A DNA stretch of 64,000 nt. Origin: Anaerolineae bacterium. GTDB taxonomy: Bacteria; Chloroflexota; Anaerolineae; Epilineales; Epilineaceae. Location of the stretch: positions 583 through 64,582 of the forward strand of contig DAOUCP010000098.1 of the NCBI GenBank assembly GCA_034432155.1, in the 5' to 3' direction. This document shows, in pieces, positions 14,016-63,953 of the stretch (within the stretch, counting starts at the first letter, position 1; each line of letters opens with the position of its first letter). Under the pieces are notes generated by a model. That model was not told the DNA's origin. It did no database searches and worked only from the letters and a program-made list of their open reading frames with translations. The position numbers and the translations under genes are program-made.

Positions 14016-14061
14016 TCCGTACCTGCCCCGTCTCGGGCGGGTTCGCTCCATCCGACAAGAG

Positions 14062-14829: not shown

Positions 14830-14845
14830 CTTGGAGAGGCTCGCG

Positions 14846-15523: not shown

Positions 15524-15600
15524 CCTTTTCCCCCGGCTGCAGGCTGGGGTACGTGGGGATGGTGGGCTGCCACTGTCCCGTCTAGGAGCAGGAGCAAAGG

Positions 15601-17268: not shown

Positions 17269-17394
17269 CCGCGGCGGTCGTTCGGCTCCCGACCGACGTT
17301 GCGGCGGCTGCGCGCTCTCCCCGCCTTCCCCTGCCCTCCGCGTCGCCGTATCATCGAGCATCGCCGCGCAGATGGCGCGGTTCGAGAGAGGGCC

Positions 17395-18291
17395 ATGCGA
17401 CCAGGGGGCAAGGTGATGCGCGAACGACTCCGCAAGCTTGAACCGACGGTCGACGTGCTTGCCACCGGCGGCGCCCTGGCCGTGGTAGCGGTGATCTTCG
17501 TGGAGTCGACGGCCACCGACACCCGCTGGCTGCAAGGCGCTGCCGCAGCCAACTGGATGATTTGGTGGCTCTTCGTCGCCGATGCCCTGATCAAGGCATT
17601 GGCCCACGGCTGCCGGTGGCTCCGCACGCGGATGGCTTGGTTCGATTTCTTCGTGATCGCCGTCAGCTACCCTGGCCTCGGAAGCTTGTTGGCCTTCGCC
17701 CGGCTGGCCCGACTTCTCCGGCTCGGAAGACTGTCTCGAACCGCCCGGCTTGCCCGGCTGTCGCGGCTGCTACGGGCGGTGCGCCTCCTGCGCCTCGGTG
17801 CGGTGGCCGCCCGGGGCCTGGTGGGTCTTCACCGCGTGCTCGATCCGCGGGCCTTTCCCTTCGTCACCCTCGTCGTGATTCTGGTCGTGGCCGCTGGCGG
17901 TGGGGCCCTGTATCTCGTCGAGTCCGGCCTAGAGCCGCTGCGCATCGAGGATGCCCTGTGGTGGGCCGTGACCACCGTCACCACCGTTGGTTACGGCGAT
18001 CTGGTGCCGCACACCGGCCTCGGTCGCTGCATTGCCGTCGCTGTCATGCTTATTGGCATCACCTTCACCAGCCTCTTGACGGCCAACATCGCTGCGTACT
18101 TGACGCGGCGCGGCGACGAACGGGCCCAGGATGACGTCCTGGCTCGCCTAGACGCTCTGACGGCCAAGGTGGATCAGCTGGGGGCGGAGCTGGCGCGGTT
18201 GCGGTCTGCTGCGCGCTGCGTCGATGCGCTGCGCGACAGGGCGCTCGCCGATGCGGGATCCGAATCCGCCGGTGAATCCGGGGCCGGCTGA
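17395..18291 (+). CDS. Voltage-gated potassium channel (Kv/KvAP-like)
   Basis: The S4 helix has Arg at every third position (RLARLLRLGRLSRTARLARLSRLLR). The TVGYGD selectivity filter is present. The start is ambiguous between the ATGs at 17395 and 17416. Confidence 0.85.
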   Translation: MRPGGKVMRERLRKLEPTVDVLATGGALAVVAVIFVESTATDTRWLQGAAAANWMIWWLFVADALIKALAHGCRWLRTRMAWFDFFVIAVSYPGLGSLLAFARLARLLRLGRLSRTARLARLSRLLRAVRLLRLGAVAARGLVGLHRVLDPRAFPFVTLVVILVVAAGGGALYLVESGLEPLRIEDALWWAVTTVTTVGYGDLVPHTGLGRCIAVAVMLIGITFTSLLTANIAAYLTRRGDERAQDDVLARLDALTAKVDQLGAELARLRSAARCVDALRDRALADAGSESAGESGAG

Positions 18292-18333
18292 TGGCGGATC
18301 CCACAATCCGCCGGTGAATCCGGGGCCGGCTGA
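18262..18333. repeat. Two copies of a 29-nt direct repeat (aatccgccggtgaatccggggccggctga) spaced 43 nt apart
   Basis: Read directly from the sequence. The first copy supplies the channel stop codon. Confidence 0.6.
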
Positions 18334-18575
18334 GGGTTGCCAGCCGGTAGCCGGTCGTGCTTCCCGGCGCCTCGCTGTCCCAGGCCGGTCAGCCCGCGCC
18401 ACGTGGTGTTGCGTCACCCTTGGAATCCTGGCCCCGACTGCCCAGTGGCTTGGCTTTGGGTTTGGGGTGGTCGAAGGCGGGCACGCGCGTCGGACGCGAC
18501 CAGCGCCAGCCTAGCAGCCAATGGATGACTCGAGGGGGCGAGCGCCGCAGGCGCGAGATCTCAAGAAGCGGCCAC

Positions 18576-19004
18576 TCATGTGAGTGGATTGGTGTAACGG
18601 ACTCCAGCGAATCGTCCGAAGTCGGGATCACTGGAGCAGATCTCCGCGCCGTGCTCGAGGGCGATCGCCGCTAGATGGGCATCGCTGGTGAGGTTGCCCG
18701 CAGTTCCCAACGGCGCCAGGAGGCCCCGGAGAATGGCGAAGTGGCGGGGCGTTGGATTCAGAATGGTCGCGCACGGTCGAGCGAGCCAGGCCTCGAGCAC
18801 CTCGAAGGCCTCGTCCGGCTCGAGTGGATGGGGGAAGATCGCCGGTCGTGTGCTGAGGCGCAAGAACGCCAGTAGGACAACCCACGTGAAGGCGACCGTC
18901 TCGGAGCCGGACAGAGCCTGCTCCAACCAGGACCTCGCGGCTGCGTGGCAGGGCGCATCCTCGTTGACGGCATAGAGCAGGAGGTTAGCGTCGACCAGCT
19001 TCAC
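18576..19004 (-). CDS. vapC: PIN-domain ribonuclease toxin VapC
   Basis: Begins MKLVDANLLLYA and ends TSDAHLAAIALEHGAEICSSDPDFGRF, which is PIN-domain architecture. Confidence 0.85.
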   Translation of the reverse strand: MKLVDANLLLYAVNEDAPCHAAARSWLEQALSGSETVAFTWVVLLAFLRLSTRPAIFPHPLEPDEAFEVLEAWLARPCATILNPTPRHFAILRGLLAPLGTAGNLTSDAHLAAIALEHGAEICSSDPDFGRFAGVRYTNPLT

Positions 19005-22804: not shown

Positions 22805-23068
22805 TGGGCGGCGCCGCCCGACGATCTGACAGCCATCGAGGGCATCGGACCGGTGATCCAGGACATCCTGCGCGACGCCGGCATTGCCACTTTCGAGGCG
22901 CTGGCGGCTACGTCGGCCGAGCGACTGGCGACCATCCTCGCTGATGCGGACTTCCGGGCTCCGGTGGACCCCGCCACCTGGCCCGAGCAGGCTGCTCTGG
23001 CCGCTGCTGGCCGCTGGGCGGAGCTGTCTGAGCTGCAGCGGCGACTGAGGGGCGGACGCGGCGAGTAG
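22805..23068 (+). CDS. Small helix-hairpin-helix (DUF4332-like) protein, paralogous to the C-terminus of the 25902-26411 gene
   Basis: 88-aa ORF reading MGGAAPDDLTAIEGIGPVIQDILRDAGIATFEAL.... It shares ~93% nucleotide identity with 26163-26411. Confidence 0.5.
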   Translation, partial: WAAPPDDLTAIEGIGPVIQDILRDAGIATFEALAATSAERLATILADADFRAPVDPATWPEQAALAAAGRWAELSELQRRLRGGRGE

Positions 23069-23159
23069 GGGCGGGCTGTCCGAGCTGCAGCCGCGGTCTA
23101 GGCCTGAATCAAGCGGTGCGCCATCGCGATCGCCTTGCAGGGGTCTCGGAGGCCGTGTC

Positions 23160-23761: not shown

Positions 23762-25087
23762 ATGCCCCGCGCAAGCGTAGGGCGCAAAGTCCTCCTCCTG
23801 GCCCTGGCTTCGATCGCCTCGTGGCTCGGGAGCGAAGCAGTCCTGGTGTCCGCCGGCTGCAACGTGTGGACGAGCCACGGACCAGAGGGCGGCGGCATTT
23901 CCGCCCTGGCAATCGACCCGGCGACGCCAACAACCTTGTACGCCGCGGCAGGCGGCGGCATCTTCAAGAGCACCGACGGCGGTCGGAGCTGGAGGGCGAT
24001 CAACAAGGGCCTGGGCTCAGGGAGAGTCTGGGCCCTGGCCATAGACCCGAAGACGCGAAGCATCCTGTACGCGGCGGCAGTCGTCGGCGGCGTGTTCAAG
24101 AGCACAAACGGTGGCGACAGCTCGAGTGCCGCCTTCACCGGTCTGAGCGGTTGGGCATTCGGCGCCCTGGCCATAGACCCCGCACAGCCAAGCACGGTCT
24201 ATGTTGGCACAGACTCGGGCGTTTACAAGAGCATAGACGGCGGCGCCAGTCGGACCACCGCCAACACCGGCCTGAAGACGTCCCCGCGCGAGTATCGCTT
24301 TGTCGGCGCCCTAACGATCGATCCGACGCAGCCAAGCATACTCTATGCTGGCACAGACCTGGGCGTCTTCAAGAGCACGAACGGTGGTGGGAACTGGCGT
24401 GCGGCCAACACCTGGCTGGCTGCCCCGCTTGTCACGGCGCTGGCGATCGATCCGGTAACACCAAGCATCGTCTAAGCCGGGACAGACGGCCGCGGCGTGC
24501 ACAAAAGCACAAATGGGGGCACGGATTGGACGGCGATCAACAACGGCCTGACCGCCACGCATGTCCTGGCGCTGGCAATAGACCCGGCCGCGCCGATCAC
24601 CCTCTATGCGGGGACGCGCTACGACGGGGGCCTGTTCAAGAGCACCGACGGCGGCGCTAGCTGGCGGCTGGCCAGAACCGGCCTGGCTGGCGGCTACGTC
24701 GTGGCGCTGGCAATCGACCCGACGACGCCAACGACCGTCTACGCGGTGGAATACAGCGCGGGTGGAGTGTATAAGAGTACGAATGGCGCTGAGAGTTGGT
24801 GGCGCACTGCGTCTACGCCCGGCACGGAATACCGTTTGGCGATCGACCCGGCGACGCCAAGCACCCTCTATGCCGGGACATCCAGCGGTGGTGTCTTCTT
24901 GAGCGGCAACGGCGCCGAGGAGTGGATGGATTTCAACGCCGGTTTGATGAAACTGAGCGTTTGTGCCCTCGCGATCGACCCGGTGACGCCGGCGATCGTC
25001 TATGCCGGGACCTATGGCGGCGGTGTGGCGTCTATTCGGCAAGTATCACAACAATTCTTCCTCCCACTTGCTTTGCGCGGCCATTAG
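23762..25087 (+). pseudogene. Secreted BNR/Asp-box-like repeat beta-propeller protein interrupted by an in-frame TAA
   Basis: Signal peptide followed by about ten repeats of LAIDPxxPxTLYAGTxxGVFKSTNGGxSW. The stop at 24473-24475 falls exactly where the repeat consensus expects Tyr (SIV*AGTDG). The two ORFs are in the same frame. Confidence 0.7.
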
Positions 25088-25901: not shown

Positions 25902-26411
25902 ATGACGCAGAAGACGGGAGCTGTGTTCCTGCTGATCGCCGGCCTAATTCTGGCGATCGTTTCGCTGTTCGCCGACAGCCTCGGCATCGGCACCAAGGTT
26001 GGCACGTTTGGCTGGGCTCAGACGGCCGGGACCATCGTCGGCGTTGTGGCCGTCGTCGCCGCTCTGTACCTGCTCGCGCGAGCCCGTGCGGCTGAGAGCG
26101 CGACCGCCCAGCCCGAGACGCAGGGAGCCGGCGAGCCGATCGGGCCGGCCCCGGTGGCGCCGGACGATCTGACGGCCATTGAGGGCATCGGACCGGTGAT
26201 CCAGGGCATCCTGCGAGACGCCGGCATTGCCACCTTCGGGGCGCTGGCAGCCACCTCGGCGGAGCGACTGGCGACCATCCTCGCTGATGCGGACTTCCGG
26301 GCTCCGGTGGACCCTGCCACCTGGCCCGACCAGGCTGCCCTGGCCGCTGCTGGCCGCTGGGCGGAGCTGTCTGAGCTGCAGCAGCGACTGAGGGGCGGAC
26401 GCGGCGAATAG
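25902..26411 (+). CDS. Membrane-anchored protein with a C-terminal helix-hairpin-helix (DUF4332-like) domain
   Basis: GGAGG RBS. Two N-terminal transmembrane helices, an A/P-rich linker, then the IEGIGPVIQGILRDAGIATF module. Confidence 0.65.
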   Translation: MTQKTGAVFLLIAGLILAIVSLFADSLGIGTKVGTFGWAQTAGTIVGVVAVVAALYLLARARAAESATAQPETQGAGEPIGPAPVAPDDLTAIEGIGPVIQGILRDAGIATFGALAATSAERLATILADADFRAPVDPATWPDQAALAAAGRWAELSELQQRLRGGRGE

Positions 26412-26992
26412 GCGGGAGCCGCCCGATGGCATCAGCGGCTGACGGCCGTGCGGTGCGAATGGGGCGAGCCGAGCCCCTGCAGCAGGCACGGAGGGGCGGA
26501 CGCGGTGAATCAGGGCGAACCGGCAGCGTACGGCACCCACGGCTCTGCGGAAGGCGAACTGTCTCTTGGTGCCGTGGAAAGGGCGAGGCATCCCCGGCGC
26601 CGCCCTCGCGCGACCGCGGGGGGATCGGATTGCCCGTCGGCGGTCTCTTGCCATGGCCATGGCTTGGACACGTACCGCGTCCCGAAACGGCACTGTTCCA
26701 AGCCGTCGTCACGCCGCAACGGCCAGAAGCTCGTCGATTCGGCCCCTGCCGTGTCGTGCCCGTGGTTGCCAGCGTGAGCCCCGGATTGGCTCTCCGTGAC
26801 CGTGCGCGTTGGCCGATGCCAGGGCTAGCCTCCTTCCTCCGGGCGGAGCGCCCAGTGTGGTCGAACATAGTTGCTACTCCGGCAGAACTCGGCGAAGGAG
26901 TATGGGCATGCCCGGGTCCGTTAGCGAGGCGCCGCGACGCAACAGCTGGGTCGAATGCCGTGGAGCGGGGTGCTGACGGCTGAGGGGGGCGC

Positions 26993-31216: not shown

Positions 31217-31440
31217 AAACCTGGTCGCTTCCAACGATATCCACTTCGATGTGCGTCTCCCTTAGATCGCGTTGCGTCCCGCGCCTGGCTTCAGAGGCAC
31301 GGCGGGACAATAATCCACCATTGAGTCCCATTGGTACCCCGATCACTAGAAGCCGCGGAGTCCGCGGCAGAAAGGAAGGGCGCTGTGTCCAGCTCGCTCC
31401 GTCAGATTCCTGGCTTTCGGTCGGGAGTGCGGTGGAAGCA

Positions 31441-32254
31441 GATGGTGGCCACCATCTGCTACCTCTCGGTGTTCGCCTTCGGACTGACGCACGGATTCTC
31501 TGGGCTCCTGTTCGCCTCACTCACACTCCTCGCCGTCGCTGCCTGGGGCAACATCGGCCATTTGCGATCACGTCTGCCGGGCATCAGCTCGGGAAATGCC
31601 GGCACAAGAATGGTCTCCTGGGCAGTTCTGATCGCTGCGGCAGCCTTGACCGGGCTGATGGCAATTGCCGGTAGCGCCGAGCCCAGTGCAGCACCAAAGG
31701 GCGCAGAGAGTCCACAGCCCCCCGGGCTCGTCGACCAGCCCACAAGCGAGGCGACCGGGTTTCCGACCTCCCCGCCGAGCCCGACTTGGGCTCGCCCAAC
31801 GTGGACGAAGGGCACGCTGCTGCCGCCACCGACCGCTACGGGCGTGCCAGCGACGGCCACACGGACCTCAACGCCCGTACCGCCCACCGAGGCACCGGCA
31901 GTGGATCTAGACCCGTACGCCGACCGCAACTGTGACGAGTTCGACAACTACGGCCAGATGCAGGCGTGGCGTCTCTATTGGCAGCGCCGTGGGGTGCCCA
32001 ATCCGGGCAACTTGGATGGGGATGGCGATGGTTTGGCCTGTGAGGAGGGTGAAGGTGGCCGACCGGCGCCTCCGCCTTCGCCCCTTCCGTTCGCGCAGCC
32101 AGCAGCTCCGGTGGCGCCGCCGCCTGCGGCGCAGCCTCCTGCACGCGGCTGCTGCAGGTACTGTACACCGGGAAAGTCCAAGGCCTGTGGTGACGCCTGT
32201 ATCTCGATCAACAAGGAGTGCCACAAGGAGCCGGGCTGTGCCTGCGACGGCTGA
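31441..32254 (+). CDS. Membrane protein with an Excalibur Ca-binding domain and a Cys-rich, metallothionein-like C-terminal tail
   Basis: Three predicted transmembrane helices and a P/T-rich linker. The Excalibur domain reads DRNCDEFDNYGQMQAW...DGDGDGLACE. The tail is CCRYCTPGKSKACGDACISINKECHKEPGCACDG. Confidence 0.7.
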
Positions 32255-32312: not shown

Positions 32313-33623
32313 ATGAGTTGGCTCTCCATACCCATCACCGTCGCCAGTCTGGCGGTGTCTCTGGGCGCCTGCTGCCTTGGCCGGCCCCCGCCTGCTGCCG
32401 GCCCCAGCTCGAGGAGATCTGCGGACACGACCGCGGCAACCGCCGAGGCACGAGCAGAGGGGCGCTCCGTCTCGCCCAAAGAGAGGTCGGTCGAGGTGGC
32501 CATCGCGGCCGAAACCCAGCAGGCGGCGATGGCAGGCTGGCCGGACTTCCGCACGTACGTCCATCGGCTCGTGCGGTACCAGCGCCGCGTGCCGTACTCC
32601 GCGCTCGGTCCGGACACCTGGGACGCCATCTCGGAGGCCGATGCAGCTACGAGCACCGACGGCCGCGTGCGCACTCTGTACTGCGACCAATGGCTGCCCG
32701 TTGCCAGCCGGGTCAACCAGTGGTGGGAACGGGAGCACCTGTGGCCCCGCTCCCTGGGCGACTTCGCCGACGAACCGTGCGACTTCGTCTTCACCGACCT
32801 CCACAATTTGTTCGCGACCGAGCCGGGCATCAACGCTGCTCGCGGGAATCTGCCCTTTGGCTATTGCACAATGCCCGATTGTGTGCCGAAGCGCTGCGCG
32901 CCCGATGGGCCCGAGAATCGGATGCGCGGCGGTGTGGATGGCGTCTGGGAAGTGTGGCCTGGCCGGCGAGGCGACGTAGCGCGAACGCTCCTGTACATGG
33001 ACGTCCGATACGAAGGCGGGCTGAATGAACTCACCGGCTGCCCGGAACCGGACCTGGTCCTCACCGATGACCGCTCGCTCATCGTGTCCACGTCCCGTAG
33101 GACGGCATACATGGGGTTGTTGAGCGATCTCGTAGCTTGGCATTGGGAGGACCCGGTGGACGATGCCGAGCGCCGCCGCAATGACGTCATCGAGCGTCAC
33201 CAGGGGAACCGCAACCCCTTCGTCGACCATCCGGATTGGGTCCGCCGGGTATTCCCACCCACCTTGGGCCCGGGGACGCCGAGAGCCGCGAGCCCCGGTG
33301 GCGCCGCGGAGGACAGGGTGCCCCCCGACGCCTGGGGCGCACCGGCCGATGGCTTGCCAAGCGGCTCCCGGGACGCGGCCACGGACAGCATGGCCGTGGA
33401 AGCTGGCCTCGCCCGGCCGGTGCCTTTGCTCGGGACAGCCTTTCCCGAGCCTATGGCAGCTGCAAGCGGGAGCCCCAACCGTGGGCACCAGACCTGTGAG
33501 GGCTACCGCCCGTGTCAGGAGTTCGCAACGCAGGATGAGGCGCAGGCGTACTTCGAGGCGTGCGGCCGACCCAACCGCATGGACGGCGACGGAGACGGCC
33601 GCGCCTGCGAGAACTTGCCGTAA
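32313..33623 (+). CDS. Extracellular endonuclease I family nuclease lipoprotein with a C-terminal Excalibur domain
   Basis: Lipobox (SLGAC), endonuclease I-family motifs (EREHLWPRSLG, DLHNLF, NAARGN), then CQEFATQDEAQAYF...DGDGDGRACE. Confidence 0.8.
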   Translation: MSWLSIPITVASLAVSLGACCLGRPPPAAGPSSRRSADTTAATAEARAEGRSVSPKERSVEVAIAAETQQAAMAGWPDFRTYVHRLVRYQRRVPYSALGPDTWDAISEADAATSTDGRVRTLYCDQWLPVASRVNQWWEREHLWPRSLGDFADEPCDFVFTDLHNLFATEPGINAARGNLPFGYCTMPDCVPKRCAPDGPENRMRGGVDGVWEVWPGRRGDVARTLLYMDVRYEGGLNELTGCPEPDLVLTDDRSLIVSTSRRTAYMGLLSDLVAWHWEDPVDDAERRRNDVIERHQGNRNPFVDHPDWVRRVFPPTLGPGTPRAASPGGAAEDRVPPDAWGAPADGLPSGSRDAATDSMAVEAGLARPVPLLGTAFPEPMAAASGSPNRGHQTCEGYRPCQEFATQDEAQAYFEACGRPNRMDGDGDGRACENLP

Positions 33624-35939: not shown

Positions 35940-36182
35940 TCACGGCGACCGGTAGCCACTGCCCGGGCCGCTCTCGAACGTGCCCGGCGAGGGTGCCAGG
36001 GTAACATCCAAGAGCGTGCCGTACCTGCGCAAGACCGGCGCTCTGTATCGCTTCTTGCCGTGGCTTCCGCTTTTCGGGTTACCGTGGGCGCTCGGAACCT
36101 GAATCTTGCCCTCGTTGTGCCTCAACTCCAGACTCCCACCACCTAACTCGTCCCGTGGTCGCACCGCCGCATCCGTTAGCAC
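35940..36182 (-). CDS. Lasso peptide precursor (A peptide)
   Basis: The leader ends ...KKRYRAPVLRRYGTLLDVTL, an exact match to the YxxPxLx3Gx5Tx lasso leader motif with Thr at -2. The predicted core is APSPGTFESGPGSGYRSP (Ala1, Glu8). The GTG start abuts the cyclase stop. A TTG at 36125 is an alternative start. Confidence 0.55.
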   Translation of the reverse strand: MLTDAAVRPRDELGGGSLELRHNEGKIQVPSAHGNPKSGSHGKKRYRAPVLRRYGTLLDVTLAPSPGTFESGPGSGYRSP

Positions 36183-38051
36183 TTACCAGTGGCGGCGCAG
36201 CCACAGCTCCAAGCAGCAGCACAGCCAGAACCAATGCTCCGTTCGACGAGTGAGTGTACCATCTGCCAGCGCGGCCGCCAAGTAGTCGGGCCGAATCATC
36301 GACCGCGCCACAATCTGCGGCTCCGTCATGAGGGCCTCCACTGCCGCCCGTTCCCTCTCCATTCCGCGCTGAAAGAGCGGCAGAAAGCTGGTGCGCTCCC
36401 GCCTGGCCAGTACCGCCTCGGGGAGCCATCCCTTAAGAGCTTGCCGATGCAACCAGCGGTCCCAGCCAGGTCGGGCTAGTTGATCGGCCGGCAAAGCCAT
36501 CATGAACTCGACCAGTCGCCGGTCCCAGTACGGCATGACCAGCTCCAGGCCGTGCCGGTTGTAAGCCTTGCGTGTCGCCGCAACACCGGCGGCGAACCAG
36601 CCATGCATCAGGCTGCGATAGCGCGGCCACTGGCCCGGTCGCGGAAAGTCGTTCCAACGCTGGCGGGCCTCGATCCGCTCCACCAAACGCGTCCGCCGAA
36701 CGAAATCAGGGTGGAGGGCAGGGTTCTGCGGCGCTGCCGGCCGCGGCCGCAAGCGCCGGTAAGCCCTGGCCGCCCGCCGCGGGATCAGCGGCCGTAGTCC
36801 GCAGTCCAGCATGTCGCGCTGCCAGCGGACGGCGCCCCTGTGGTCCCAGAGCAGCCGCGCGAGCGCGCCGAGGCGGCCCTCGCGGACCATGTCGAGGGCC
36901 CAGTAGGCGCCGCCTGTGAACAGGACGTCGCCGTAATAGCCGGCCAAGAGGACGCGGCAGCCAGCTGCCTCGGCGGCTTCCATGACCGCCTCCGGCAGCC
37001 ATGCGTAGGGATCCCGCAGGACAGTGGCGCGCTCGACGGGCCATGCCTCCAGGTTGCGCAAGGTCCAGCGATCGTCGCACGGGATGTACGTTGCCGCGAT
37101 CTCACTCCGCTTCACGACCGGTTCGATGTAGCGACGCTCGTCGCAGCTCACAAGCTCATCAAACACGTAGGAAAAGGAGCAGAGCTGCGGCTGGTCGAGC
37201 CCGGACTGGGGGAGAAGGGCCGCGGTCAGCGCGGCAAGGGCCGTGGAATCCAGGCCGCCACTCAGCGAAACGCCGACCGGGCCGATGGTGCGAAGTCGGC
37301 AGCGAATTGCCCCCGCCAGCAGGACACTGTAATGCTCGGCGTAGTCCTGGTCGCTGCGATAGCGAATGCGCTGCTCCGGATTCACGTCCCAGTATCGCCA
37401 CTTGCGCACGCCGTTGGCCGTGATGGCGAGGCAATGCGCTGGCGGCAGGAAGCAGATACCTTGGTAGAACGTCGCCTCGTGCTCTTCGCCGACGACCGCC
37501 AGCATGTCCGCCACCGACTCCTCGTTCAGTCTGGGCTGGACAGCCGGGTGAGCCAGAAGCTGGTCGATTTCGGAAGCGACGAGAACGAGTCTGCCCTGCA
37601 CACAGTAGCACAGATCGCGGACGCCCAGGGGGTCGCGAGTCACGAACAGCTGGCGCTGCCGGCGATCCCAGATGGCCACGGCGAAGTCGCCGAGTAGCCT
37701 CTCGACACAAGCCGTTCCCCACTTGCGGTAGGCCCAGAGAATGAGCTGGGCATCGGTTGGGGACCGGTCCTGCTGGATCCAATCGCCCAGGCTTGCCAGG
37801 AGTTCGGTTCGATTGTCGAGCCGCGCGTCGCACACCAGAGCGCACTGGGCCGGACCGTCGAAGAGAGGCTGCCTCTCGCCGACCTCTTCGGGAGTGAGCC
37901 AGAAGTGCTGATGAGCCAACGCCACGCCATCACCGAGCCACACTTCCTGGCCGTCGGGGCCACGATGGCGACTGGCAGCCAGTATGTGCTCCACTACGGC
38001 CCGCTCGACAGGCGCACCATCGAGGTGGACCACTGCCAGGATGCCGCTCAT
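36183..38051 (-). CDS. Lasso peptide cyclase (asparagine synthetase B homolog without the N-terminal Cys nucleophile)
   Basis: 622-aa AsnB-family protein starting MSGILAV (Ser, not Cys, at position 2) with an SGGLDS PP-loop ATP-binding motif. Followed directly by the precursor ORF. Confidence 0.8.
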   Translation of the reverse strand: MSGILAVVHLDGAPVERAVVEHILAASRHRGPDGQEVWLGDGVALAHQHFWLTPEEVGERQPLFDGPAQCALVCDARLDNRTELLASLGDWIQQDRSPTDAQLILWAYRKWGTACVERLLGDFAVAIWDRRQRQLFVTRDPLGVRDLCYCVQGRLVLVASEIDQLLAHPAVQPRLNEESVADMLAVVGEEHEATFYQGICFLPPAHCLAITANGVRKWRYWDVNPEQRIRYRSDQDYAEHYSVLLAGAIRCRLRTIGPVGVSLSGGLDSTALAALTAALLPQSGLDQPQLCSFSYVFDELVSCDERRYIEPVVKRSEIAATYIPCDDRWTLRNLEAWPVERATVLRDPYAWLPEAVMEAAEAAGCRVLLAGYYGDVLFTGGAYWALDMVREGRLGALARLLWDHRGAVRWQRDMLDCGLRPLIPRRAARAYRRLRPRPAAPQNPALHPDFVRRTRLVERIEARQRWNDFPRPGQWPRYRSLMHGWFAAGVAATRKAYNRHGLELVMPYWDRRLVEFMMALPADQLARPGWDRWLHRQALKGWLPEAVLARRERTSFLPLFQRGMERERAAVEALMTEPQIVARSMIRPDYLAAALADGTLTRRTEHWFWLCCCLELWLRRHW

Positions 38052-38177: not shown

Positions 38178-41100
38178 TTAGGGACGCCCCGGTTCCACCA
38201 CCAGAGCTGGATCGCCCAGGAGCGTCCAGCCCATTTGGACGTCGATCAGGCCGGGCAGCTCACGCGCCAGCTCCCGCTTGGCGTCGCGAATGGCCGCTCC
38301 GATAGTCATGCCAGGTCGGGCCAGCTTCGGCATCAGGCGCACCGCCAACGCTCGCTCGGCCGACTCGGTGGCGAGCGATGTCGGGCCCATCGTGGCCACG
38401 GCAGCGTTGGTGCCCCCCAGCAACAGAAGGTCGTTCAGGGTGTCGAACTTTGGCTGGAGATAGTAGGTATTGTAGCATCCCCACTGAGTGACGACGGTCG
38501 GCTTGCCGAAGTTTGTAAGCAACTTCGCTTGTTCACTTGTCAGCAGGTAGTTGAATGACCAGACAGCGGAACTCGAGTGCCCCACGTAGTTGGTGAGTGC
38601 CATTCCGCTATTGACGGATTCCTGCAGTGCTGTCTGGGCCTGCGACACAGTCAGTTCGTCGAGATGGACCCGCTGGCAGGTCCAGTCCTCGGGCAGCCCT
38701 GCCCTCATGATCTCGCTCGTGTCCCTGAAGGACCGATCGGCAGCGAACACGGCCCGCCGACGGTAGGTCTTGGTCTCATACGCCCGCATCTTCTCAACCA
38801 GGTTGGCCAGTTCGGCCGAGGTGCGCACTGGCAGGCGTCCAACGGCCAAGTCCGGCACACCATCGTCGTCCACGTCGGCGTACCATGGGTCGGCCGGCAA
38901 GAACAGGGTCCTGTCACTCGGGACGAAGGGGGTCGGGAGGAAGCTGATGCCGCCGTGGCCGGGAGTCCCCAAGTAGTCGTACGTGTCATCTCCAACCAAA
39001 AGGACGTATTCGGTCCCCATGTTGCGCGAGGCATAGCGAATGTAGTCTCGCAACGGCTCCGGACCGAAAATGCCATCTCCGAACTGATTGTATACGTCGC
39101 GCACGTCGACGATCTTGACGGTAAAGCCCTGTGCCTGGCGCGCCGCCACCAAAGGCGCCAAGCCGTCAATGAAGTCAGGATGGCTGACGATCAGGTACTG
39201 CGCCACCCCGGACGTGAGGTCGACGATGGGCCGTACGGAGTTGATCCGCGGGGCGAGAAACCCCGGTCCGGAAGCGAGCACGTAGCTGGCCCGATCCGGA
39301 CTGCCGCGAAACGTCACGCTGTACGAACCGCCGGCTGCGGCCACGGTAGGGGAAGCCAGGAACGTCGGCTGGCCGTCCACCAGGCGATAGACGGCGACAT
39401 CTGGGCTCGGCAAGTTCGTGACGCGGAATGCCGAACCGACGCCGGTGAACATCAAACGGCCATCGCGGGCGACAAACGCCCGCGGATAGGTGAGGCTGTA
39501 CCGATCCAACGCCAGCATGTCCCACTTGGCGCCGCGATCGGCCGGCAGTGCGATGGCCATCGTGTTGGTGCCGTCGTGGACCAAACCGCGGGGCAGGGTG
39601 ACCTCCACCACCTCCACCTCGAAGGCGTCGAACACGACGTCGGCCACTGGCGTGCCATTGAGCGCGATCTGCACGTGATGGTCGGGCCCAGGCAGCATAT
39701 CGCTGAGCCCCCACAACTCGACTCTGAGGACAGGCGGCTCGCCTTCGGGCACCAGGTGGTCCACTTCAATGGTGAAGCCGTCCCACGTCTTCGGTTGGCG
39801 ATAAACCAGCAGCATCGTGTCGTACCATGGGTCGCCATTCGGCGACACATCGGCGTAGTCGCGGTCACGGTTGACCTGGGATGTCTCCAGGTAATACGTC
39901 GGAATTGTGACGCTGCGGCCAGGCTTCGCGGCGTCGCGGTCCATCCGCTTCGCTCCCGGTCCGGCCACCTCGAGGCGGTACACGTTTGTATGGCTGTACA
40001 GCGTGTTCAGCCGGACACCGTAAAACTCCAGGAAGCTCCCAGGCCCCATCAACTCTGGGCCGCCGAACCGAAGGGGCACCGGCCGGCCGCGATTGCTCAA
40101 GGCCAAAAGCGATCGGGGTACCCCGGTGAGATCCAACCCGGCGGCCTGCAGCATCTCGTTGGTCACGCGGTACACGCCGTCCGTTTCCACCAAGAACTCG
40201 CATGCCGGATAGCCCAGAAGTCCGCTCACCGCTTTGCGTGCCACCGTCACGGCCGCCAGGCGGCGCCGCTCAACCGCTGCACGTTGCAGCGACTTTCGTT
40301 CGTGCTCAGCCCACACTGCTGACCAGTTTGTCGGCTCGATCCACAGGCGCCCGCCATAGGTTTGGCCTAGGGCAAATGGGCCGTGTAGGCGCGTGCGGCC
40401 CTGCGTGTCGACGTCTTCCAAATAGAAGATCTCTCCGGCCACGCCGGCGACGCGGAACGAGTACTCTTGGGGCACCGCGGAGTTCACCACCTTCGATGGA
40501 ATGATCTCCGCGTTCAGTCTCCGCGGTTGCCGATTGGCTTCGACGTACAGATTGAAACCAGCGTTGAGCTCCTCCGTTGCTGTCTGCCAGTCAAAGCGAA
40601 CATGCCCGTCCTCACGGCTGGCTTGGAAGAACGCCAATGTGACCGGTGCCGTCACCGACACGCTCCCGCAGTTGTTGGCTCGGTTGGGCTCTTCCTGTTT
40701 GGCCTGCGGCGTCGGCGCCACGCAGGCCGTGTTCTGCAAAACGCCGGTGCCCGGGTCGTCCGGATGCAGGCGCACCCAGATGCGGAAGGTGATGCTGTTG
40801 CCGCTGCCCACCCCCAGGGCCGCTATCTCGCACGTGACCAGGCCGCCATACGTTGTGCCCGGCGTTCCGCTGTACGTACAGCCTGCGGGCAGTGCGTGAT
40901 CCGGATCGACGGTGAGGTTAGCGGGAAGACCGTCGGTGACCAGAGCCGCCGGCTGGCCGGGAGACGTGGAGGTCAGGCTGTCGGGTCCGTAGTTCGTGAC
41001 GGTGATGTCGTAGTAAAACGGCAACGGCACACACGGGCCGCTGCTGCAATCCCACTGGACACTCGTGACACTGGACGTTTTGGTCGTGGCCAGGTCGACG

Positions 41101-42065
41101 AGATCATGGTGGTTGCCGAAGTTGTAGGCCGAGTAGGTCCCACCGGCTGAGACCGTAACCTGATGATAGCCGACCACCGGATAGGTCTGCGTCCAGTAGG
41201 CCTGTTGGACTTCGCGGATGTAGTGCGTCCCCGGATAGGCGTAGAGAGTATACGATCCGTCCGCTGCAGTGGTTGTGGAGGCGATGACGGTGCTGCACGC
41301 CGAGTCTGCGCAGAGCTGCACGGTCCAGCCGGAGAGGGCTGACTCATCGCCATCCCACACCCTGTCACTGTCCTTGTCTTCCCACTTGTAGCCGCTGATC
41401 ATTGCCCGTGCGATTGCCGTGGTCATGATCGAGAGCGTGCCACCACCGGTGACGCCGGTCAGGCTTGTCTGAAGAGACGCACCGGGCCATTGACTCGCTC
41501 CGCGACATCCGGGAATGGTGTCCGGCGGCGCGATGTACAGCCCCCAGTACAAATAGGCCGTGGTCGCCAAGGCGGTAAACGTTACCTCGAGGTACCGCTG
41601 GACTCCATCGCCGACGTCGAAAGGTCCCGAGACCTGCGTGATGTTCGCGCCACTCGTGTAGAAGTTTCCATAACCACCCGGGATGGGATCGTCGATCTGC
41701 AGCGGAGCTCCAGGAGTTGGAAACCCTTGCCGAGTCTGATCATATGTTGCGAGATGATCGAATCCGCATGTATTTGTAGAAGCGTAATAGTAGTCGTAGT
41801 AAATCTGAAAAGTGTAAGAATTGCCGACGGTGATCCTCGAGATCTCTACGTAGTGTGGAACAACATCGGTCTCGAAGTAATCTGAGTTGGTATTGTTGAG
41901 AGCACCTTTTGTCCAACTGAAACTAGGCTTCGTCGCCAGATGGTAGAAGTTCGCAGCCTGTGCCGATGCCACCGTCGGGATCAGGAAGACTGCCACCATC
42001 AGGGCGAAGGCTATCTTTCGCGTCGCTGGTCGCCTCCAGCCCCCGCCCAAGCTTGTCCATGACAT
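38178..42065 (-). CDS. Large secreted multi-domain protein (SdrD/CnaB-type and DUF11-like repeats) with a C-terminal peptidase C25 (gingipain-like) domain
   Basis: Strong AGGAGG RBS and a signal peptide (MSWTSLGGGWRRPATRKIAFALMVAVFLIPTVASAQA). An ISGYKWEDKDSDRVWDGDE motif is present. The C-terminal region (VLLVGDDTYDYLG...DVDDDGVPDLAVGRLPVRT...YVGHSSS) matches clan CD/C25 topology. Confidence 0.8.
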   Translation of the reverse strand: MSWTSLGGGWRRPATRKIAFALMVAVFLIPTVASAQAANFYHLATKPSFSWTKGALNNTNSDYFETDVVPHYVEISRITVGNSYTFQIYYDYYYASTNTCGFDHLATYDQTRQGFPTPGAPLQIDDPIPGGYGNFYTSGANITQVSGPFDVGDGVQRYLEVTFTALATTAYLYWGLYIAPPDTIPGCRGASQWPGASLQTSLTGVTGGGTLSIMTTAIARAMISGYKWEDKDSDRVWDGDESALSGWTVQLCADSACSTVIASTTTAADGSYTLYAYPGTHYIREVQQAYWTQTYPVVGYHQVTVSAGGTYSAYNFGNHHDLVDLATTKTSSVTSVQWDCSSGPCVPLPFYYDITVTNYGPDSLTSTSPGQPAALVTDGLPANLTVDPDHALPAGCTYSGTPGTTYGGLVTCEIAALGVGSGNSITFRIWVRLHPDDPGTGVLQNTACVAPTPQAKQEEPNRANNCGSVSVTAPVTLAFFQASREDGHVRFDWQTATEELNAGFNLYVEANRQPRRLNAEIIPSKVVNSAVPQEYSFRVAGVAGEIFYLEDVDTQGRTRLHGPFALGQTYGGRLWIEPTNWSAVWAEHERKSLQRAAVERRRLAAVTVARKAVSGLLGYPACEFLVETDGVYRVTNEMLQAAGLDLTGVPRSLLALSNRGRPVPLRFGGPELMGPGSFLEFYGVRLNTLYSHTNVYRLEVAGPGAKRMDRDAAKPGRSVTIPTYYLETSQVNRDRDYADVSPNGDPWYDTMLLVYRQPKTWDGFTIEVDHLVPEGEPPVLRVELWGLSDMLPGPDHHVQIALNGTPVADVVFDAFEVEVVEVTLPRGLVHDGTNTMAIALPADRGAKWDMLALDRYSLTYPRAFVARDGRLMFTGVGSAFRVTNLPSPDVAVYRLVDGQPTFLASPTVAAAGGSYSVTFRGSPDRASYVLASGPGFLAPRINSVRPIVDLTSGVAQYLIVSHPDFIDGLAPLVAARQAQGFTVKIVDVRDVYNQFGDGIFGPEPLRDYIRYASRNMGTEYVLLVGDDTYDYLGTPGHGGISFLPTPFVPSDRTLFLPADPWYADVDDDGVPDLAVGRLPVRTSAELANLVEKMRAYETKTYRRRAVFAADRSFRDTSEIMRAGLPEDWTCQRVHLDELTVSQAQTALQESVNSGMALTNYVGHSSSAVWSFNYLLTSEQAKLLTNFGKPTVVTQWGCYNTYYLQPKFDTLNDLLLLGGTNAAVATMGPTSLATESAERALAVRLMPKLARPGMTIGAAIRDAKRELARELPGLIDVQMGWTLLGDPALVVEPGRP

Positions 42066-42537
42066 GGTCTCTACCTCCTCTTTCGTGCCTGGCAGACAGC
42101 CTCCGGAGCATGCGCCGCCACGGGCCAGGGGGAGCCGCAAGTCACCTTTGCGACCACCTTCGTCTCCCACCAATTCGGCTCCCGCTCGCCGATCACGGGC
42201 CGCAGGCACCGTCTGGCCACCACGCCCCTGGCCGGCACTGCATTCGGCGTCACGGCGCACACTTTGGGAGCGTCGCCGAAGGACCGGTGGTCCAGGCCGT
42301 TCGTGGTCTCTCTGCCGGTTGCCAGGATACGGTTCCGCCTGACGGTGCCCAGCAGCACAGCTTCCACGCTCGACCGACCTTCCAAGTTGTCCCGGATCTC
42401 CGTGCCCGAGGCGACGTGGGCCCGATTCGACCTCCGGCTGGTGCGAGTCACGGTGAACATCGGGCTAGCGCCGTGGCTTCCGACCCGAGACCCTCACGTG
42501 CCCCACATGCAAGAGTCCCGTGATCGCCGCAGCCGCA

Positions 42538-44884: not shown

Positions 44885-45883
44885 ATGGAACAAGCAACCG
44901 CTTCCAGCAGCGTAGCCGCGTGGCTTACCGCCGGACTGCTGATGACGATCTTGCTCGGCCCGGCCGTGGCGCTGGATTCGCCCATCGGAAGGTCGGCGCC
45001 GGCTGCCTCCGCGATCGTGATCGACCACACCTGCACCGATCTCGCCCGCATACCGACGGACTGGATCGGAAGAGCGAAACGGCTCACCTTGCACTACGCG
45101 CACACATCGCATGGCTCCCAGCTGATCAGTGGGCTAGAGGACCTAGAGCGCATCGACCCCCAATATGACGTCGCGGTGCACACCAGCGCCACCGTCGGCC
45201 TGCCCTCGGCACCGGATGCATTGCGGATCTACGACGGCAATCCCGGCGCCACCTATATTACTCCCGAGCTCTACTGGGCATCGGCCGACGGCATCGCTCG
45301 TACGCGCGCGGTCGCCGACACCGGCCTGTTCGGCTTTTCGATGTGGGCATGGTGTGGCCAGCAGTCCTCCAACTCCGAGGGGCAGGTCCGGCAGTACCTC
45401 GACCAGTTGGACGAGTTCGAGCGGCTTTATCCCGCGATGCGCTTCATCTACATGACTGGCCACACCGACGGCGGCTCGGCCACGCTGACGCGCAACAACC
45501 AGTTGGTCCGGGACTACGTTCGGGCGCACGGCAAGGTCCTGTTCGACTTCGCCGATATCGAGAGCTACGACCCCGCCGGCAACTACCACCCTGAGACCAC
45601 CGACGCCTGCGACTGGTGCGAGGACTGGTGCCGGGTTCATCCCGAGGACTGTCGAAACCTGCCTTCGTCCTGCGCCCACTCGCACCCCTTGAACTGTCGC
45701 CGCAAAGGCTATGCCGTCTGGTGGCTGATGTCGCGCCTCGCTGGCTGGCCCGGGCCATCAGCCACCCCAGGCACTCCGCAGCCCACCGTCCAGCCTCTGC
45801 CAAGCAGGACCGTCGAACCACATCCGCTGACCGACTCGGCGATCTATCTGCCGGCCGTCTGGCACAGCGGCCCATCCAGCTGA
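44885..45883 (+). CDS. Secreted hypothetical protein with a Cys-rich C-terminal region
   Basis: Signal peptide (MEQATASSSVAAWLTAGLLMTILLGPAVA). The long 44114 ORF N-terminus was rejected. The protein ends ...AIYLPAVWHSGPSS. Confidence 0.6.
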   Translation: MEQATASSSVAAWLTAGLLMTILLGPAVALDSPIGRSAPAASAIVIDHTCTDLARIPTDWIGRAKRLTLHYAHTSHGSQLISGLEDLERIDPQYDVAVHTSATVGLPSAPDALRIYDGNPGATYITPELYWASADGIARTRAVADTGLFGFSMWAWCGQQSSNSEGQVRQYLDQLDEFERLYPAMRFIYMTGHTDGGSATLTRNNQLVRDYVRAHGKVLFDFADIESYDPAGNYHPETTDACDWCEDWCRVHPEDCRNLPSSCAHSHPLNCRRKGYAVWWLMSRLAGWPGPSATPGTPQPTVQPLPSRTVEPHPLTDSAIYLPAVWHSGPSS

Positions 45884-59938: not shown

Positions 59939-60312
59939 GGCTGCCGGGCGAACCTTGGCCCGTCTCGGCGCGGTCGAGCGATGCCGGCGCTCGGTCATCC
60001 TCGCCTCATTGAGGGATCGACTGCCACCTGCTATGATGGCCTCCTCTTGGCGGGTTCGCCGAGAGGCGGTTTGCCAGCCACCGTGGCAGGGAGTTAGCCG
60101 TGCCGCACCCGTTCGGGGTGTCGAGCCAGGGCAGAGGTCTCTTCCCCTGGCCGACGGAGCCGCGCGCGGTCATGGCCGCGCACCGAGCCTTGCCGGGCCA
60201 TGGCCCAGCGTTACGTGCGGTTGGTTTTCCATCGGGCAGCCGGCCGCATCATGCCTTGCGGCTGCTGGGCGGGTTCCGCGACCCGTTCGGGCAGCTTTTG
60301 GCCTCGGCCCCT

Positions 60313-62199
60313 GTGACCCGTCAGGCGGTCCGGTTACTGTGCGGTCTGGCCCTGACGACCGCTCTCGGCGTGGCGAGTGCCGGAGTCGGTGGCACAGGGC
60401 CGACGACGGCGAACGGGCGCACTGCCTCGCTGGGCGATGGAGCGGCGCCGATCGTCTACGGCCACCGGTTGCGCTACCGGTGGGTGTACCTGCCAGACAA
60501 CTACCAGGCGGCCGGCAATGTCGAGCGCATGATGGCCCTCTTGGATCGAGCGAAGGCTGCCGGCTACAACGGCGCGCTGCTGGCCGATGTGAAGTTCGGG
60601 CGGCTTGACGATGGCAGTCTGGTTCCAGCGTACTACACCAATCTGCGGACGGTCTTGGAGCACGCCCGCAAGCTGGGGATGGACATGATCCCTGCCACCG
60701 CGGATTTCGGCTATTCGGAGTCGATCCTGTGGCACGACCCCAACCTGGCCGAGGGTCTGCCCGTCCGCGGCGCCCTCTTCCAGGCGAGCGACGGCGCGTT
60801 GGTGCCCCTCAATGACCCACCGGTGACGCTGGTGAACGGCGACTTCGAGCAGCTGCCAGCCGATGGACACCAGTTTCCGGGCTGGGCATGGCAGGACCAA
60901 CCGGGTGTGACGACCTTCGTCGACACCGAAGTCAAGCATGGTGGGCGGGCGTCCCTGCGCATGACCGATATCGGCCTCACCAATCCGCCCCACGGGCACG
61001 GCCGCATTCACCAGCGCGTCCGAGTGCAGCCGTTTCACTACTACCATGTCTCAGTGTGGCTCAAGACCGAGGAGTTCCACGGCGGCGACGTCTGGGTCAT
61101 GATCCTCGGTCAGAAGCCGCAGCGCACCCTGCAGTACAACCCCATCCCGATCGAGCCGACGCGGGACTGGTGGCGCTTCGATGTGACCTTCAACAGCCTC
61201 ACACACGATGAGATCCTGTTCTACTTTGGTGTCTGGGGTGGGGGCCGGGGCACCATCTGGTGGGACGATGGCGCCATGGAACCGGCGGGCTTCGTCAACG
61301 TCGTGCGGCGTGCCGGCGCACCCTTGCGGATGACCAGCGCCGATGGCCTGACCGTCTATGAGGAAGGCCGCGACTACGAAGCCGTGGTCGATCTGCAGCT
61401 GGGTCGAGTGCCATGGCGCGGCCTGTATGACTTGTGGCATGACCCACCCCGAATCGGTCTGCCGGCAGGCTCCCGGATTGCCGATGGCCAAGTGGTTCGG
61501 GCGAGTTACTATCACATGGCCACGATCTACGGCCACCAGGTCCCGGCGAGCCTCACCGAGCCGCGGAGCTTCGAGATCTGCCGGGGCCAGCTCAGCAGTT
61601 TGCAGCGCGAGTTCAGCCAGGCAGGCGCCTTCGCTGGCTGGCTGTTCGGACACGACGAGATCCGAGTCCACGGTTGGGACGAAGCGCCGCGCGCCGGCGC
61701 CGGCTCACCTGGTGAGGACCTGGCGTACAACTTCCGCACGCTCTACGACATGGCCAAGGCGATGCAGCCGGGGGCGGTCATTCTGACGTGGTCGGATATG
61801 TTCGATCCGTACCACAACGCGACAGACTCGGAGGACCCGTACTACTTGGTCAATGGGAGTTGGGCGGGTAGCTGGTTGGGCCTGCCGGCGGACGTGATCG
61901 TTCTGAACTGGCACCATCACCGCGATCGACGGCTGGCCGCGGAGTTCTTCGCCGAACGTGGGCATCGGCAGATCCTAGCCGGTTACTACGATGCCTCGCC
62001 CGACCAGTTCGGCGACCGGGACTGGCTGCGCGAGCTTGAAGGTGTTCCGCGGATCGAGGGCGTAATGTACACCGCCTGGGGGTCTGGCTACGACAATCTA
62101 GAGGCCTGGGCGCACCACGCCTGGGGTGACGCTCCTTGGACGACAACCGGTCCGGCCCGCGATGTCTACCTGCCGGTCCTATGCCGCGGGATGTGGTAA
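60313..62199 (+). CDS. Secreted protein with a CBM4/9-like carbohydrate-binding module (probable glycoside hydrolase)
   Basis: A GTG start gives the signal peptide MTRQAVRLLCGLALTTALGVASA. Contains VNGDFEQLPADGHQFPGWAW...GGRASLRM. Ends ...DVYLPVLCRGMW. Confidence 0.65.
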   Translation: MTRQAVRLLCGLALTTALGVASAGVGGTGPTTANGRTASLGDGAAPIVYGHRLRYRWVYLPDNYQAAGNVERMMALLDRAKAAGYNGALLADVKFGRLDDGSLVPAYYTNLRTVLEHARKLGMDMIPATADFGYSESILWHDPNLAEGLPVRGALFQASDGALVPLNDPPVTLVNGDFEQLPADGHQFPGWAWQDQPGVTTFVDTEVKHGGRASLRMTDIGLTNPPHGHGRIHQRVRVQPFHYYHVSVWLKTEEFHGGDVWVMILGQKPQRTLQYNPIPIEPTRDWWRFDVTFNSLTHDEILFYFGVWGGGRGTIWWDDGAMEPAGFVNVVRRAGAPLRMTSADGLTVYEEGRDYEAVVDLQLGRVPWRGLYDLWHDPPRIGLPAGSRIADGQVVRASYYHMATIYGHQVPASLTEPRSFEICRGQLSSLQREFSQAGAFAGWLFGHDEIRVHGWDEAPRAGAGSPGEDLAYNFRTLYDMAKAMQPGAVILTWSDMFDPYHNATDSEDPYYLVNGSWAGSWLGLPADVIVLNWHHHRDRRLAAEFFAERGHRQILAGYYDASPDQFGDRDWLRELEGVPRIEGVMYTAWGSGYDNLEAWAHHAWGDAPWTTTGPARDVYLPVLCRGMW

Positions 62200-62426: not shown

Positions 62427-63953
62427 TCAGGGCCGAACGGCCATCGGCAGGTAGACACGGGAGCCCGCCGCTTCCGGCGGCGTTGCTACACCGGTTGTCG
62501 TGGCCACCGCGGTGAGGGGCGGCGTACCCGTCGAAACGACACTCGCCGTTCCAGTGGCTGCGACGGCCGTGGCCGTCCCGCTCTCGGTGGGCGTCTCTAA
62601 GGGTGCCGGGGTCTCGCTGGTGGGCAGCGTGCCGCTGGCGAGAGCGGTGGCTGTGACGACGGCAGTCGCTGTCTCTGTTCCGAGCGGTGTGGCCACGGCA
62701 GTGGCCGTCTCCGTTTCGCCCGCTGTGGACGAGGGCGGCGGCACCAGGCCGGTGCAGTCCAGGTAGTGCAGCGTGCCCCTGAGATCGCGCGGACCACGCA
62801 CCGCCCCAGCGATGAGGATTGGCGTCTGGTGCTGCGAGTCGTACACCATGGTCGCGCCGTAACGCTCACCTATCCAGGCGCCATTTAGCTTGGCCCAGGT
62901 CGCGGTGGTGGTGTCGAACACCCACGTATAGTTCTCCGTGATGGGTAGTTCGTTACTGCCCAGGCCACCGTAGACGAGAAACCAGCGCCGCGCTGGGTCG
63001 TACACCGAGGCGTGGTAGGAACGGGCCGGCGGGCGATCGCCACGCGGCCGGATGGTCGTCGCCTGCGGTCGGGTCGGGCTCTGCTGGAGGTCAAGTTGCC
63101 ACAAGAGGTCGCTGGCTCCCTGGTCGCCTTTGCTGCCGCCGAACAGCAGGATCCGCGGAACCGCCGGATCGTAGCCCAGCGCAGCGCCGTACAACCGGTC
63201 AGGAGCGGTGAAGGCACTCACCCGTGAGACGCGGAGGTCAATGCTGTGCCACCGGCTGAGCGGGCTCTGACTGCTGTTCGACTCGCGGCCGCCAACGACG
63301 AGAATGACCTTCTCCTCCGGCTGGATGGCCGAGACGTGATCCTGCAGCCGGCTGAGCACGCCGGTGGCGAAATCCTCGGTGGCCCAAAGCTTCTGCCGGG
63401 GCACATAGCGGAATACCGCGCGTTCGGCGTCTCGCTCCTCGGCCAAACTGGCCAAGCATGAGCCTGGTCAGGTAGGCCGCGGCGTGGGCGTCCTGGTCCG
63501 AGCCGGCATGGGTGTGATCGGCGTGGCCGTTGGTTCGAAGCGGCCGCCCTGCTGCCCGGCGATCCAGTAGACGATCGGATCGCCGTCCGTCGGCAGGAAC
63601 ACACCCGAGTGGCCCCAGCGCGGAAGGGGCTGCTGGCCTTCGATCGGCAGCGGCACGAGGTGGGCCTTCTCGATGTCGGGATCGCTGAAGTCGACGCCCA
63701 CTACAGCCGCGCTGGGCGAGCCGCCAGCGTCGAGACCGCCGTAGTAGTACGCGCGCTGGTCGACGGAGTCGAAGACGGCAGCGCCGTGGACACGCGGCGG
63801 GATCTGGACCGCCAGCTCGCGCCACACGCACCCGGGAGCTGGCTGCGCATCGGCAAGCCGAGTCACCGACGCTGGCCGACCGTCACGCGCCGCGGTGGCG
63901 AGCGCCAGACTCAACGCCAGGAGGGCGCCGAAAACGCGGTGCTGCCTCTTCAC
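62427..63953 (-). pseudogene. Secreted Kelch-repeat beta-propeller protein split by an in-frame TGA at 63468-63470 (alternatively two genes)
   Basis: Signal peptide plus two Kelch-like repeats and a T/P linker in the upstream ORF. Four more Kelch-like repeats and a T/A/P tail in the downstream ORF. Both ORFs are in the same frame. Ends ...RVYLPMAVRP. Confidence 0.55.

Follow-up and report, generated by a model that had tools for sequence, protein, structure and literature searches.

The four short tails that close secreted proteins of different folds in a 64,000-nucleotide stretch of an Anaerolineae bacterium (contig DAOUCP010000098.1 of assembly GCA_034432155.1, positions 583 to 64,582; the whole stretch is hereafter the window) are, judged from their sequences, probably new and divergent members of the YLP-box, a putative sorting motif that is already known. 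In a BNR/Sortilin-type propeller the core of the tail is FFLPLALR (25055-25078, plus strand), with two further residues, GH, before the TAG stop that ends at 25087. A Cys-rich secreted protein has IYLPAVWH (45842-45865, plus strand), then SGPSS and TGA (through 45883); a CBM_4_9 enzyme has VYLPVLCR (62164-62187, plus strand), then GMW and TAA (through 62199); and a Kelch propeller has VYLPMAVR (62433-62456, minus strand), then a single P and TGA (62427-62429). Each core reads hydrophobic-(Y/F)-L-P with a basic residue four positions later, which is R in three of the four and H in the other, and the column composition agrees with that of 74 related instances considered below. Signal-peptide-like leaders were seen in the BNR, Cys-rich and CBM proteins and, for the Kelch gene, in the upstream part only.

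The initial annotation of this DNA had claimed a common C-terminal pattern (V/I/F)(Y/F)LP-x-hydrophobic-x-(R/H) on four secreted proteins, and all four tails are present as it stated. The interval it assigned to the CBM tail, 62168-62199, does hold the tail and is off the codon boundary by one base, with 62167-62199 encoding YLPVLCRGMW and the stop. A low-complexity linker was said to stand ahead of each tail; it is clear in the Cys-rich protein and in the Kelch protein, where approximately 110 amino acids rich in Thr, Ala and Pro precede the tail, whereas the CBM enzyme has a short one and the BNR protein none. The ending ...ENLP of an endonuclease I, which had been offered as a related motif, is unrelated because it is the end of an Excalibur calcium-binding domain. 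Such a domain is found in each of two neighboring secreted or membrane proteins (31331-32254 and 32598-33623, plus strand), one of which is the endonuclease I.

Two curated NCBIfam models carry the description "YLP-box putative sorting motif-containing protein": sort_motif_YLP (NF050076.1), which spans 11 positions and has a cutoff of 15 bits, and ultrashort_CTERM (NF053834.1), with 10 positions and a cutoff of 10 bits. The canonical form x-[VI]-Y-L-P-L-[VI]-[VLM]-[RK] passes both. The NCBIfam sorting-domain models gave no match on whole window proteins, and the YLP-box models surfaced on scanning the isolated tails of relatives. P0361 (tail ...RQVYLPLVLRGAS) scores 16.6 bits with NF050076 and 15.3 bits with NF053834, while P0266 (tail ...FQLYLPLIVRGQP) scores 18.2 and 15.7 bits, respectively; both are homologues of the Cys-rich protein of the window (E = 1e-63 and 7e-100). 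The same models also match an N-terminal copy of the motif (P0370) and a copy lying before a VWA domain (P0133). The window tails thus resemble the curated motif in the hydrophobic-(Y/F)-L-P core followed by hydrophobic residues and R/K, in a length of 10 to 11 positions, and in their occurrence on exported Chloroflexota proteins, with canonical members in the same family as the Cys-rich protein. They differ in having x-hydrophobic-x in place of the canonical L-(V/I)-(V/L/M) and in the one core that ends in H, and the name ultrashort_CTERM stresses the C-terminus whereas the motif is seen at N-terminal and internal positions as well. With two curated models in existence, the earlier idea of a possibly undescribed system does not stand. 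The broader proposal of a sorting or processing signal fares better, as the NCBI curators likewise speak of a putative sorting motif, although the signal is not strictly C-terminal and no processing enzyme was identified in the window or beside YLP genes in related loci.

The CBM_4_9-containing secreted enzyme (60100..62199, plus strand; Pfam CBM_4_9; 311 homologues) shows how the tail is conserved. Its open reading frame comprises 699 amino acids, with an uncertain start codon and a hydrophobic leader near residues 76-95. The tail is kept in 39 of the 43 close orthologues (52-76% identity), where it stands behind hypervariable Pro/Thr linkers, and all labeled ones among these close orthologues belong to Ardenticatenales, Anaerolineae or Chloroflexi. 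More distant homologues of approximately 570 amino acids, from Planctomycetota, Armatimonadota and Verrucomicrobiota, end right after the catalytic domain with neither linker nor tail. The tails of 33 orthologues, pooled with 41 instances from other families, yield the consensus (R)-[VLI]-[YFLW]-L-P-x-[LAVG]-x-[RK], a motif of approximately 10 residues in which the Pro is invariant (74/74) and the preceding Leu nearly so (67/74). The residues beyond the final R/K usually number 0 to 8, and in 14 of the 39 tail-bearing orthologues the protein ends exactly at R/K. These comparisons indicate protein-level selection on the tail and, in the sequences compared, a restriction of the motif to Chloroflexota (Ardenticatenales/Anaerolineae and relatives).

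It is also important to consider whether the motif extends beyond the CBM family. A 10-column scoring matrix trained on the tails of the CBM orthologues only was applied to 93 called genes on seven related contigs (L001 and L083-L089), and high-scoring tails were found on unrelated flanking proteins, among them a CotH/LTD protein, two LVIVD-repeat proteins, a Reg_prop protein and a peptidase S8, together with three successive proteins of approximately 1000 amino acids, one protein of 166 and one of 412 amino acids. In six-frame translation the matrix matched the tails of 26 of 1280 open reading frames from Chloroflexota loci vs. 9 of 4408 from the loci of other phyla (1.12 Mb), and the 9 are short, Arg-rich and off-frame. 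Among the non-CBM genes of at least 100 amino acids in the related loci, the motif occurs in 11 of 25 proteins with a leader vs. 2 of 48 without one (Fisher P = 6e-5), where a leader was called as signal-peptide-like by a strict rule, and one of the 2 "leaderless" motif proteins has an obvious leader that the rule missed. The motif is associated with signal-peptide proteins, and the claim of a common tag on unrelated exoproteins is borne out by the CBM orthologues and the flanking genes as a selected, lineage-restricted motif on otherwise unrelated exported proteins.

The three genes for the proteins of approximately 1000 amino acids lie in succession on L083 (12079-21632, plus strand), directly downstream of a CBM-enzyme orthologue. 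They encode signal peptides and the YLP tails ERLFLPQLLRQPQP, ERLFLPRLLRQPRP and GPIYLPYGYSGRRR, and none of the three proteins has a Pfam match. A second locus, L084, holds two adjacent Reg_prop paralogues (13515-16178 and 16306-18843, minus strand; 28% identity, E = 2e-18) that both contain a Pro-rich linker and differ in what follows it: one ends in a PEP-CTERM-like domain that scores 15.6 bits with TIGR02595, whose cutoff is 16, and the other ends in a YLP tail with a 15-residue extension. The YLP motif thus takes the place of a known anchor, because these paralogues carry either the PEP-CTERM-like domain or the YLP tail after a like linker.

The four tails also stand out from what composition would yield. 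Across 343 stop-to-stop open reading frames of at least 100 amino acids in all six frames of the window, these four are the only ones with [VIFLM][YFW]LP in the last 25 residues, the motif starting 9 to 13 residues before the stop. A stricter pattern occurs 6 times in the 69.7 thousand amino acids of six-frame open reading frames, and 4 of the 6 occurrences are these tails. Shuffling the tails leads one to expect 0.10 (loose pattern) or 0.02 (strict pattern) genes, compared with the 4 found among 47 called (Poisson P = 4e-6 and 7e-9, respectively). The loci of other phyla, which are mostly what a genome scan with the CBM-orthologue alignment returned and which served only as a negative control, contain 3 strict tail matches in 4408 open reading frames over their 1.12 Mb, all short and off-frame, while the Chloroflexota loci contain 8 in 757; internal (non-tail) match rates are equal in the two sets. 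The possibility raised at the outset, that the motif is common at random in high-GC proteomes, was therefore checked against these same loci (3/4408), and high G+C content alone does not yield the pattern. A DNA repeat or terminator as the source of the tails was also considered and is ruled out by comparison of the four sites, since the 24-nucleotide cores have just 12 to 17 of 24 bases in common, the codons (CTC CCA vs. CTG CCG) and the stop codons differ, and no similarity was found downstream of the four cores.

The position of the motif within proteins turned out to be less uniform than the window suggests. In two flanking proteins it follows a Pro/Thr linker and precedes a terminal VWA domain (...ATGEP-GRAYLPLAMK-HVC... 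and ...TVVP-RPIFLPLCAK-C...), and the same order of linker, x-YLP-hydrophobic(3)-[RK]-[ED]-x-C and VWA is found in 7 of the 9 closest homologues of this module (P0130-P0135 and P0137, one of them labeled Anaerolineae), with the Pfam VWA domain starting approximately 12 residues past the motif. In one further protein the motif lies ahead of a Pro-rich linker and a CAP domain. The family of the window Cys-rich protein (44888..45883, plus strand) extends this variation: among 150 representatives the motif is C-terminal in 9, lies 10 to 25 residues past the signal peptide and directly before the domain in 5, and, in at least 2 more (P0337 and P0399), stands right before the domain with a repeat domain upstream of it. 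The Cys-rich domain itself, an alpha/beta domain, appears to represent a large uncharacterized secreted family: it has 2623 representative homologues, no match to a Pfam or NCBIfam model, and an AlphaFold2 predicted local distance difference test (pLDDT) score of 96-98, and its only structural neighbors are weak ones among SGNH-type esterases and peptidoglycan O-acetyl enzymes (TM-score, the template modeling score, of 0.3-0.45). The motif is most often at the extreme C-terminus and usually stands at the distal end of a Pro/Thr-rich spacer, yet it also occurs past a signal peptide or before a terminal VWA or CAP domain, so that the earlier description of a strictly C-terminal signal has to be given up.

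AlphaFold2 assigns the motif a pLDDT below 50 in the VWA module and of 41-51 in the window Cys-rich protein, while the adjoining domains exceed 90. Because the motif is left at low confidence beside confident domains, it behaves in these models like a short linear motif that is flexibly tethered and part of no fold. The idea that it is a built-in strand of either the VWA fold or the Cys-rich domain was rejected on the basis of the same values and of the start of the VWA domain approximately 12 residues later.

With this in mind, the explanation that we tentatively favor is docking or retention by way of the YLP-box. A bolder form of it, which we consider less likely than not, is that the motif is no cleaved C-terminal sorting signal at all and would act from any position, always on a flexible Pro/Thr tether, by being caught by a new envelope receptor, with LP-x-hydrophobic-x-R as an Ardenticatenales-specific version. 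An envelope component would recognize the exposed YLP peptide in trans, most likely by strand or groove binding, and would thereby retain the exoprotein at the cell surface or sheath or route it there, while the Pro/Thr linker may serve as a spacer arm with the motif at its far end. Docking or retention is preferred over a cleaved C-terminal signal because the position of the motif varies and because many proteins end exactly at R/K, which leaves nothing to cleave. The N-terminal and pre-VWA/CAP copies likewise make a poor fit with sortase-type cleavage at the C-terminus.

Among established systems, the tripartite signals (LPXTG/sortase, PEP-CTERM/exosortase, GlyGly-CTERM/rhombosortase and MYXO-CTERM/myxosortase) are similar in that a short Pro-containing signature occurs on many unrelated exports of one lineage, often after a Pro-rich spacer, and a YLP tail takes the slot of a PEP-CTERM-like domain in a paralogue. 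In contrast to these signals, the YLP motif comes without the transmembrane helix of approximately 20 residues and the basic cluster, is not confined to the C-terminus, and has no known sorting enzyme. The claim that these tails lack a transmembrane helix is correct, as the 8-residue cores of the window are followed by only 1 to 5 residues and the R/K of the orthologues by 0 to 8, with no hydrophobic helix among them. The NCBIfam models of tripartite sorting domains gave no match on the window proteins and their tails, while the PEP-CTERM-like tail in L084 was detected as a positive control. The C-terminal domain (CTD) signals of the type IX secretion system (T9SS) and its enzyme PorU are similar in being a C-terminal tag on secreted proteins without a membrane anchor, and the window has a gene for a PorU-like C25 peptidase. 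The T9SS signal, however, is a folded domain of approximately 80 amino acids, unlike the YLP tails of 10 to 15 residues that are predicted to be disordered, and the C25 peptidase scores far below the PorU cutoff and has its homologues outside Chloroflexota.

The main rival to docking is that the motif is a proteolytic processing site at or near which a dedicated endopeptidase cuts, e.g., after the conserved R/K; such a cut would trim C-terminal extensions, remove N-terminal pro-segments or split off terminal VWA and CAP domains, possibly with transfer to an acceptor in a sortase- or PorU-like manner. Several observations fit this reading. The variable extension of 0 to 8 residues after R/K looks dispensable, and a cut there would leave a uniform ...LPxxxR end; the internal copies lie exactly at the junction of linker and domain; the conserved four-residue core with its alternating pattern would suit the substrate cleft of a protease; and the slot is the one that the PEP-CTERM-like signal occupies in a paralogue. 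We nevertheless regard processing as unlikely, given that a cut would be pointless in the 14 of 39 orthologues with nothing past R/K, that N-terminal copies would put the anchor on the discarded peptide, and that no protease was found to co-distribute with the motif, the relatives of the C25 peptidase lying in other phyla and the one CPBP protein near a YLP gene being no more than a generic representative of its family.

The C25 peptidase deserves separate mention since clan CD peptidases include transpeptidases, which is why it drew attention. It is a large, secreted, PorU-like protein with SdrD_B and DUF11 domains (38178..42464, minus strand) that scores 138 bits with the PorU model NF033707, whose cutoff is 420. 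Its closest homologues share 41-46% identity, those with a label belong to Acidobacteriota, Thermoanaerobaculia or Contendobacter, and the Ardenticatenales relatives contribute none. As the sorting enzyme of the YLP motif it was rejected because its homologues do not track the motif, and it is given here as context only and not as part of the system; the fact that its nearest relatives are in Acidobacteriota and Gammaproteobacteria suggests that it was acquired horizontally.

A weaker rival, and to us quite an improbable one, is that the motif acts as a peripheral membrane or wall anchor, in which 6 to 7 hydrophobic or aromatic residues flanked by Arg/Lys would bind the outer face of the cytoplasmic membrane or an anionic wall polymer with no protein receptor. 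The composition, a hydrophobic and aromatic core between basic residues, fits this proposal, as does the presence of the motif at any position but always on a flexible tether, and Pro/Thr spacers resemble wall-spanning regions. The strictness of the Pro and Leu columns (74/74 and 67/74), however, speaks for specific recognition and not for general hydrophobicity, R, Q, S and H are tolerated after the Pro, and the hydrophobic stretch would be too short for stable partitioning into a membrane. Last, chance, composition or a DNA-level feature (a high-GC codon artifact, a repeat or terminator at gene 3' ends, or a fold-specific strand) could draw only on the shortness of the motif, the 66% G+C of the genome and one off-frame open reading frame, ending at 59856, that also has a match, and is already contradicted by the shuffling results, the missing tail in high-GC loci of other phyla, the dissimilar DNA of the four cores, the persistence of the motif behind hypervariable linkers, and its occurrence beside unrelated folds in segments that AlphaFold2 predicts to be disordered.

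Several points weigh against both the YLP-box assignment and the docking proposal built on it. None of the four window proteins, their isolated tails or the tested CBM-orthologue tails gives a match to a YLP-box model, even at E ≤ 10, where the speed filters of HMMER may hide weak matches, so the membership of the window tails rests on the shared core, position and family context and not on a curated score. The sample of the lineage is small, at approximately 275 kb, and was gathered around one gene family; a metagenome scan with a single protein as query yielded one short locus. No receptor or processing enzyme for the motif was found in the window or among the neighbors of YLP genes in the related loci: an NCBIfam scan of the membrane proteins and proteins of unknown function next to YLP genes yielded, in the way of a curated partner, nothing beyond a generic CPBP protease, which adjoins one YLP gene (L088), and the Pfam-scanned window genes include no sortase, exosortase, rhombosortase or CPBP protein. 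A literature search for the YLP-box, peptide strings or Chloroflexota sorting signals found no relevant papers. Finally, two of the four tail genes contain in-frame stops and may therefore not be expressed intact. The BNR/Sortilin-type propeller gene (23762..25087, plus strand), which encodes a signal peptide, has an in-frame TAA at 24473-24475 in place of a Tyr of the repeat consensus. The Kelch beta-propeller gene (62427..63953, minus strand) has an in-frame TGA at 63468-63470 between its signal-peptide part (63471-63953) and the part with propeller and tail (62427-63455), both of which lie in one frame. These stops could be the mark of pseudogenes, strain variants or assembly errors.

The surroundings of the BNR gene have features of their own. 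A 275-nucleotide direct repeat with 92% identity brackets the gene (22809-23083 and 26152-26426), and each copy forms the 3' end of an open reading frame that ends ...AAGRWAELSELQ(R/Q)RLRGGRGE. The contig has a G+C content of 66%, against which the codons of the BNR tail and the 60 nucleotides past its stop stand out as AT-rich. Elsewhere in the window, an Asn-synthase-like protein (35940-38051, minus strand) scores 469 bits with the lasso-peptide cyclase model NF033535, below its cutoff of 525. A small open reading frame just downstream of this gene ends ...DVTLAPSPGTFESGPGSGYRSP, and its Thr at position -2, together with a core from A1 to E9, would suit a lasso-peptide precursor; a B protein was not observed in the vicinity.

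Chloroflexota, which secrete many polymer-degrading enzymes, are plentiful in soils, sediments and sludge, and the YLP-box marks a sizeable share of what is exported, approximately 4 of 47 genes in the window and roughly 40% of the leader-bearing proteins in the related loci. The fact that the curated models miss this divergent, lineage-specific variant means that annotation pipelines under-call such proteins, and the N-terminal and inter-domain positions of the motif narrow the mechanisms by which it can act. The phylum has been reported to be monoderm. If the bolder docking reading is true, the YLP-box would give Chloroflexota a novel means of surface display that needs no membrane anchor.

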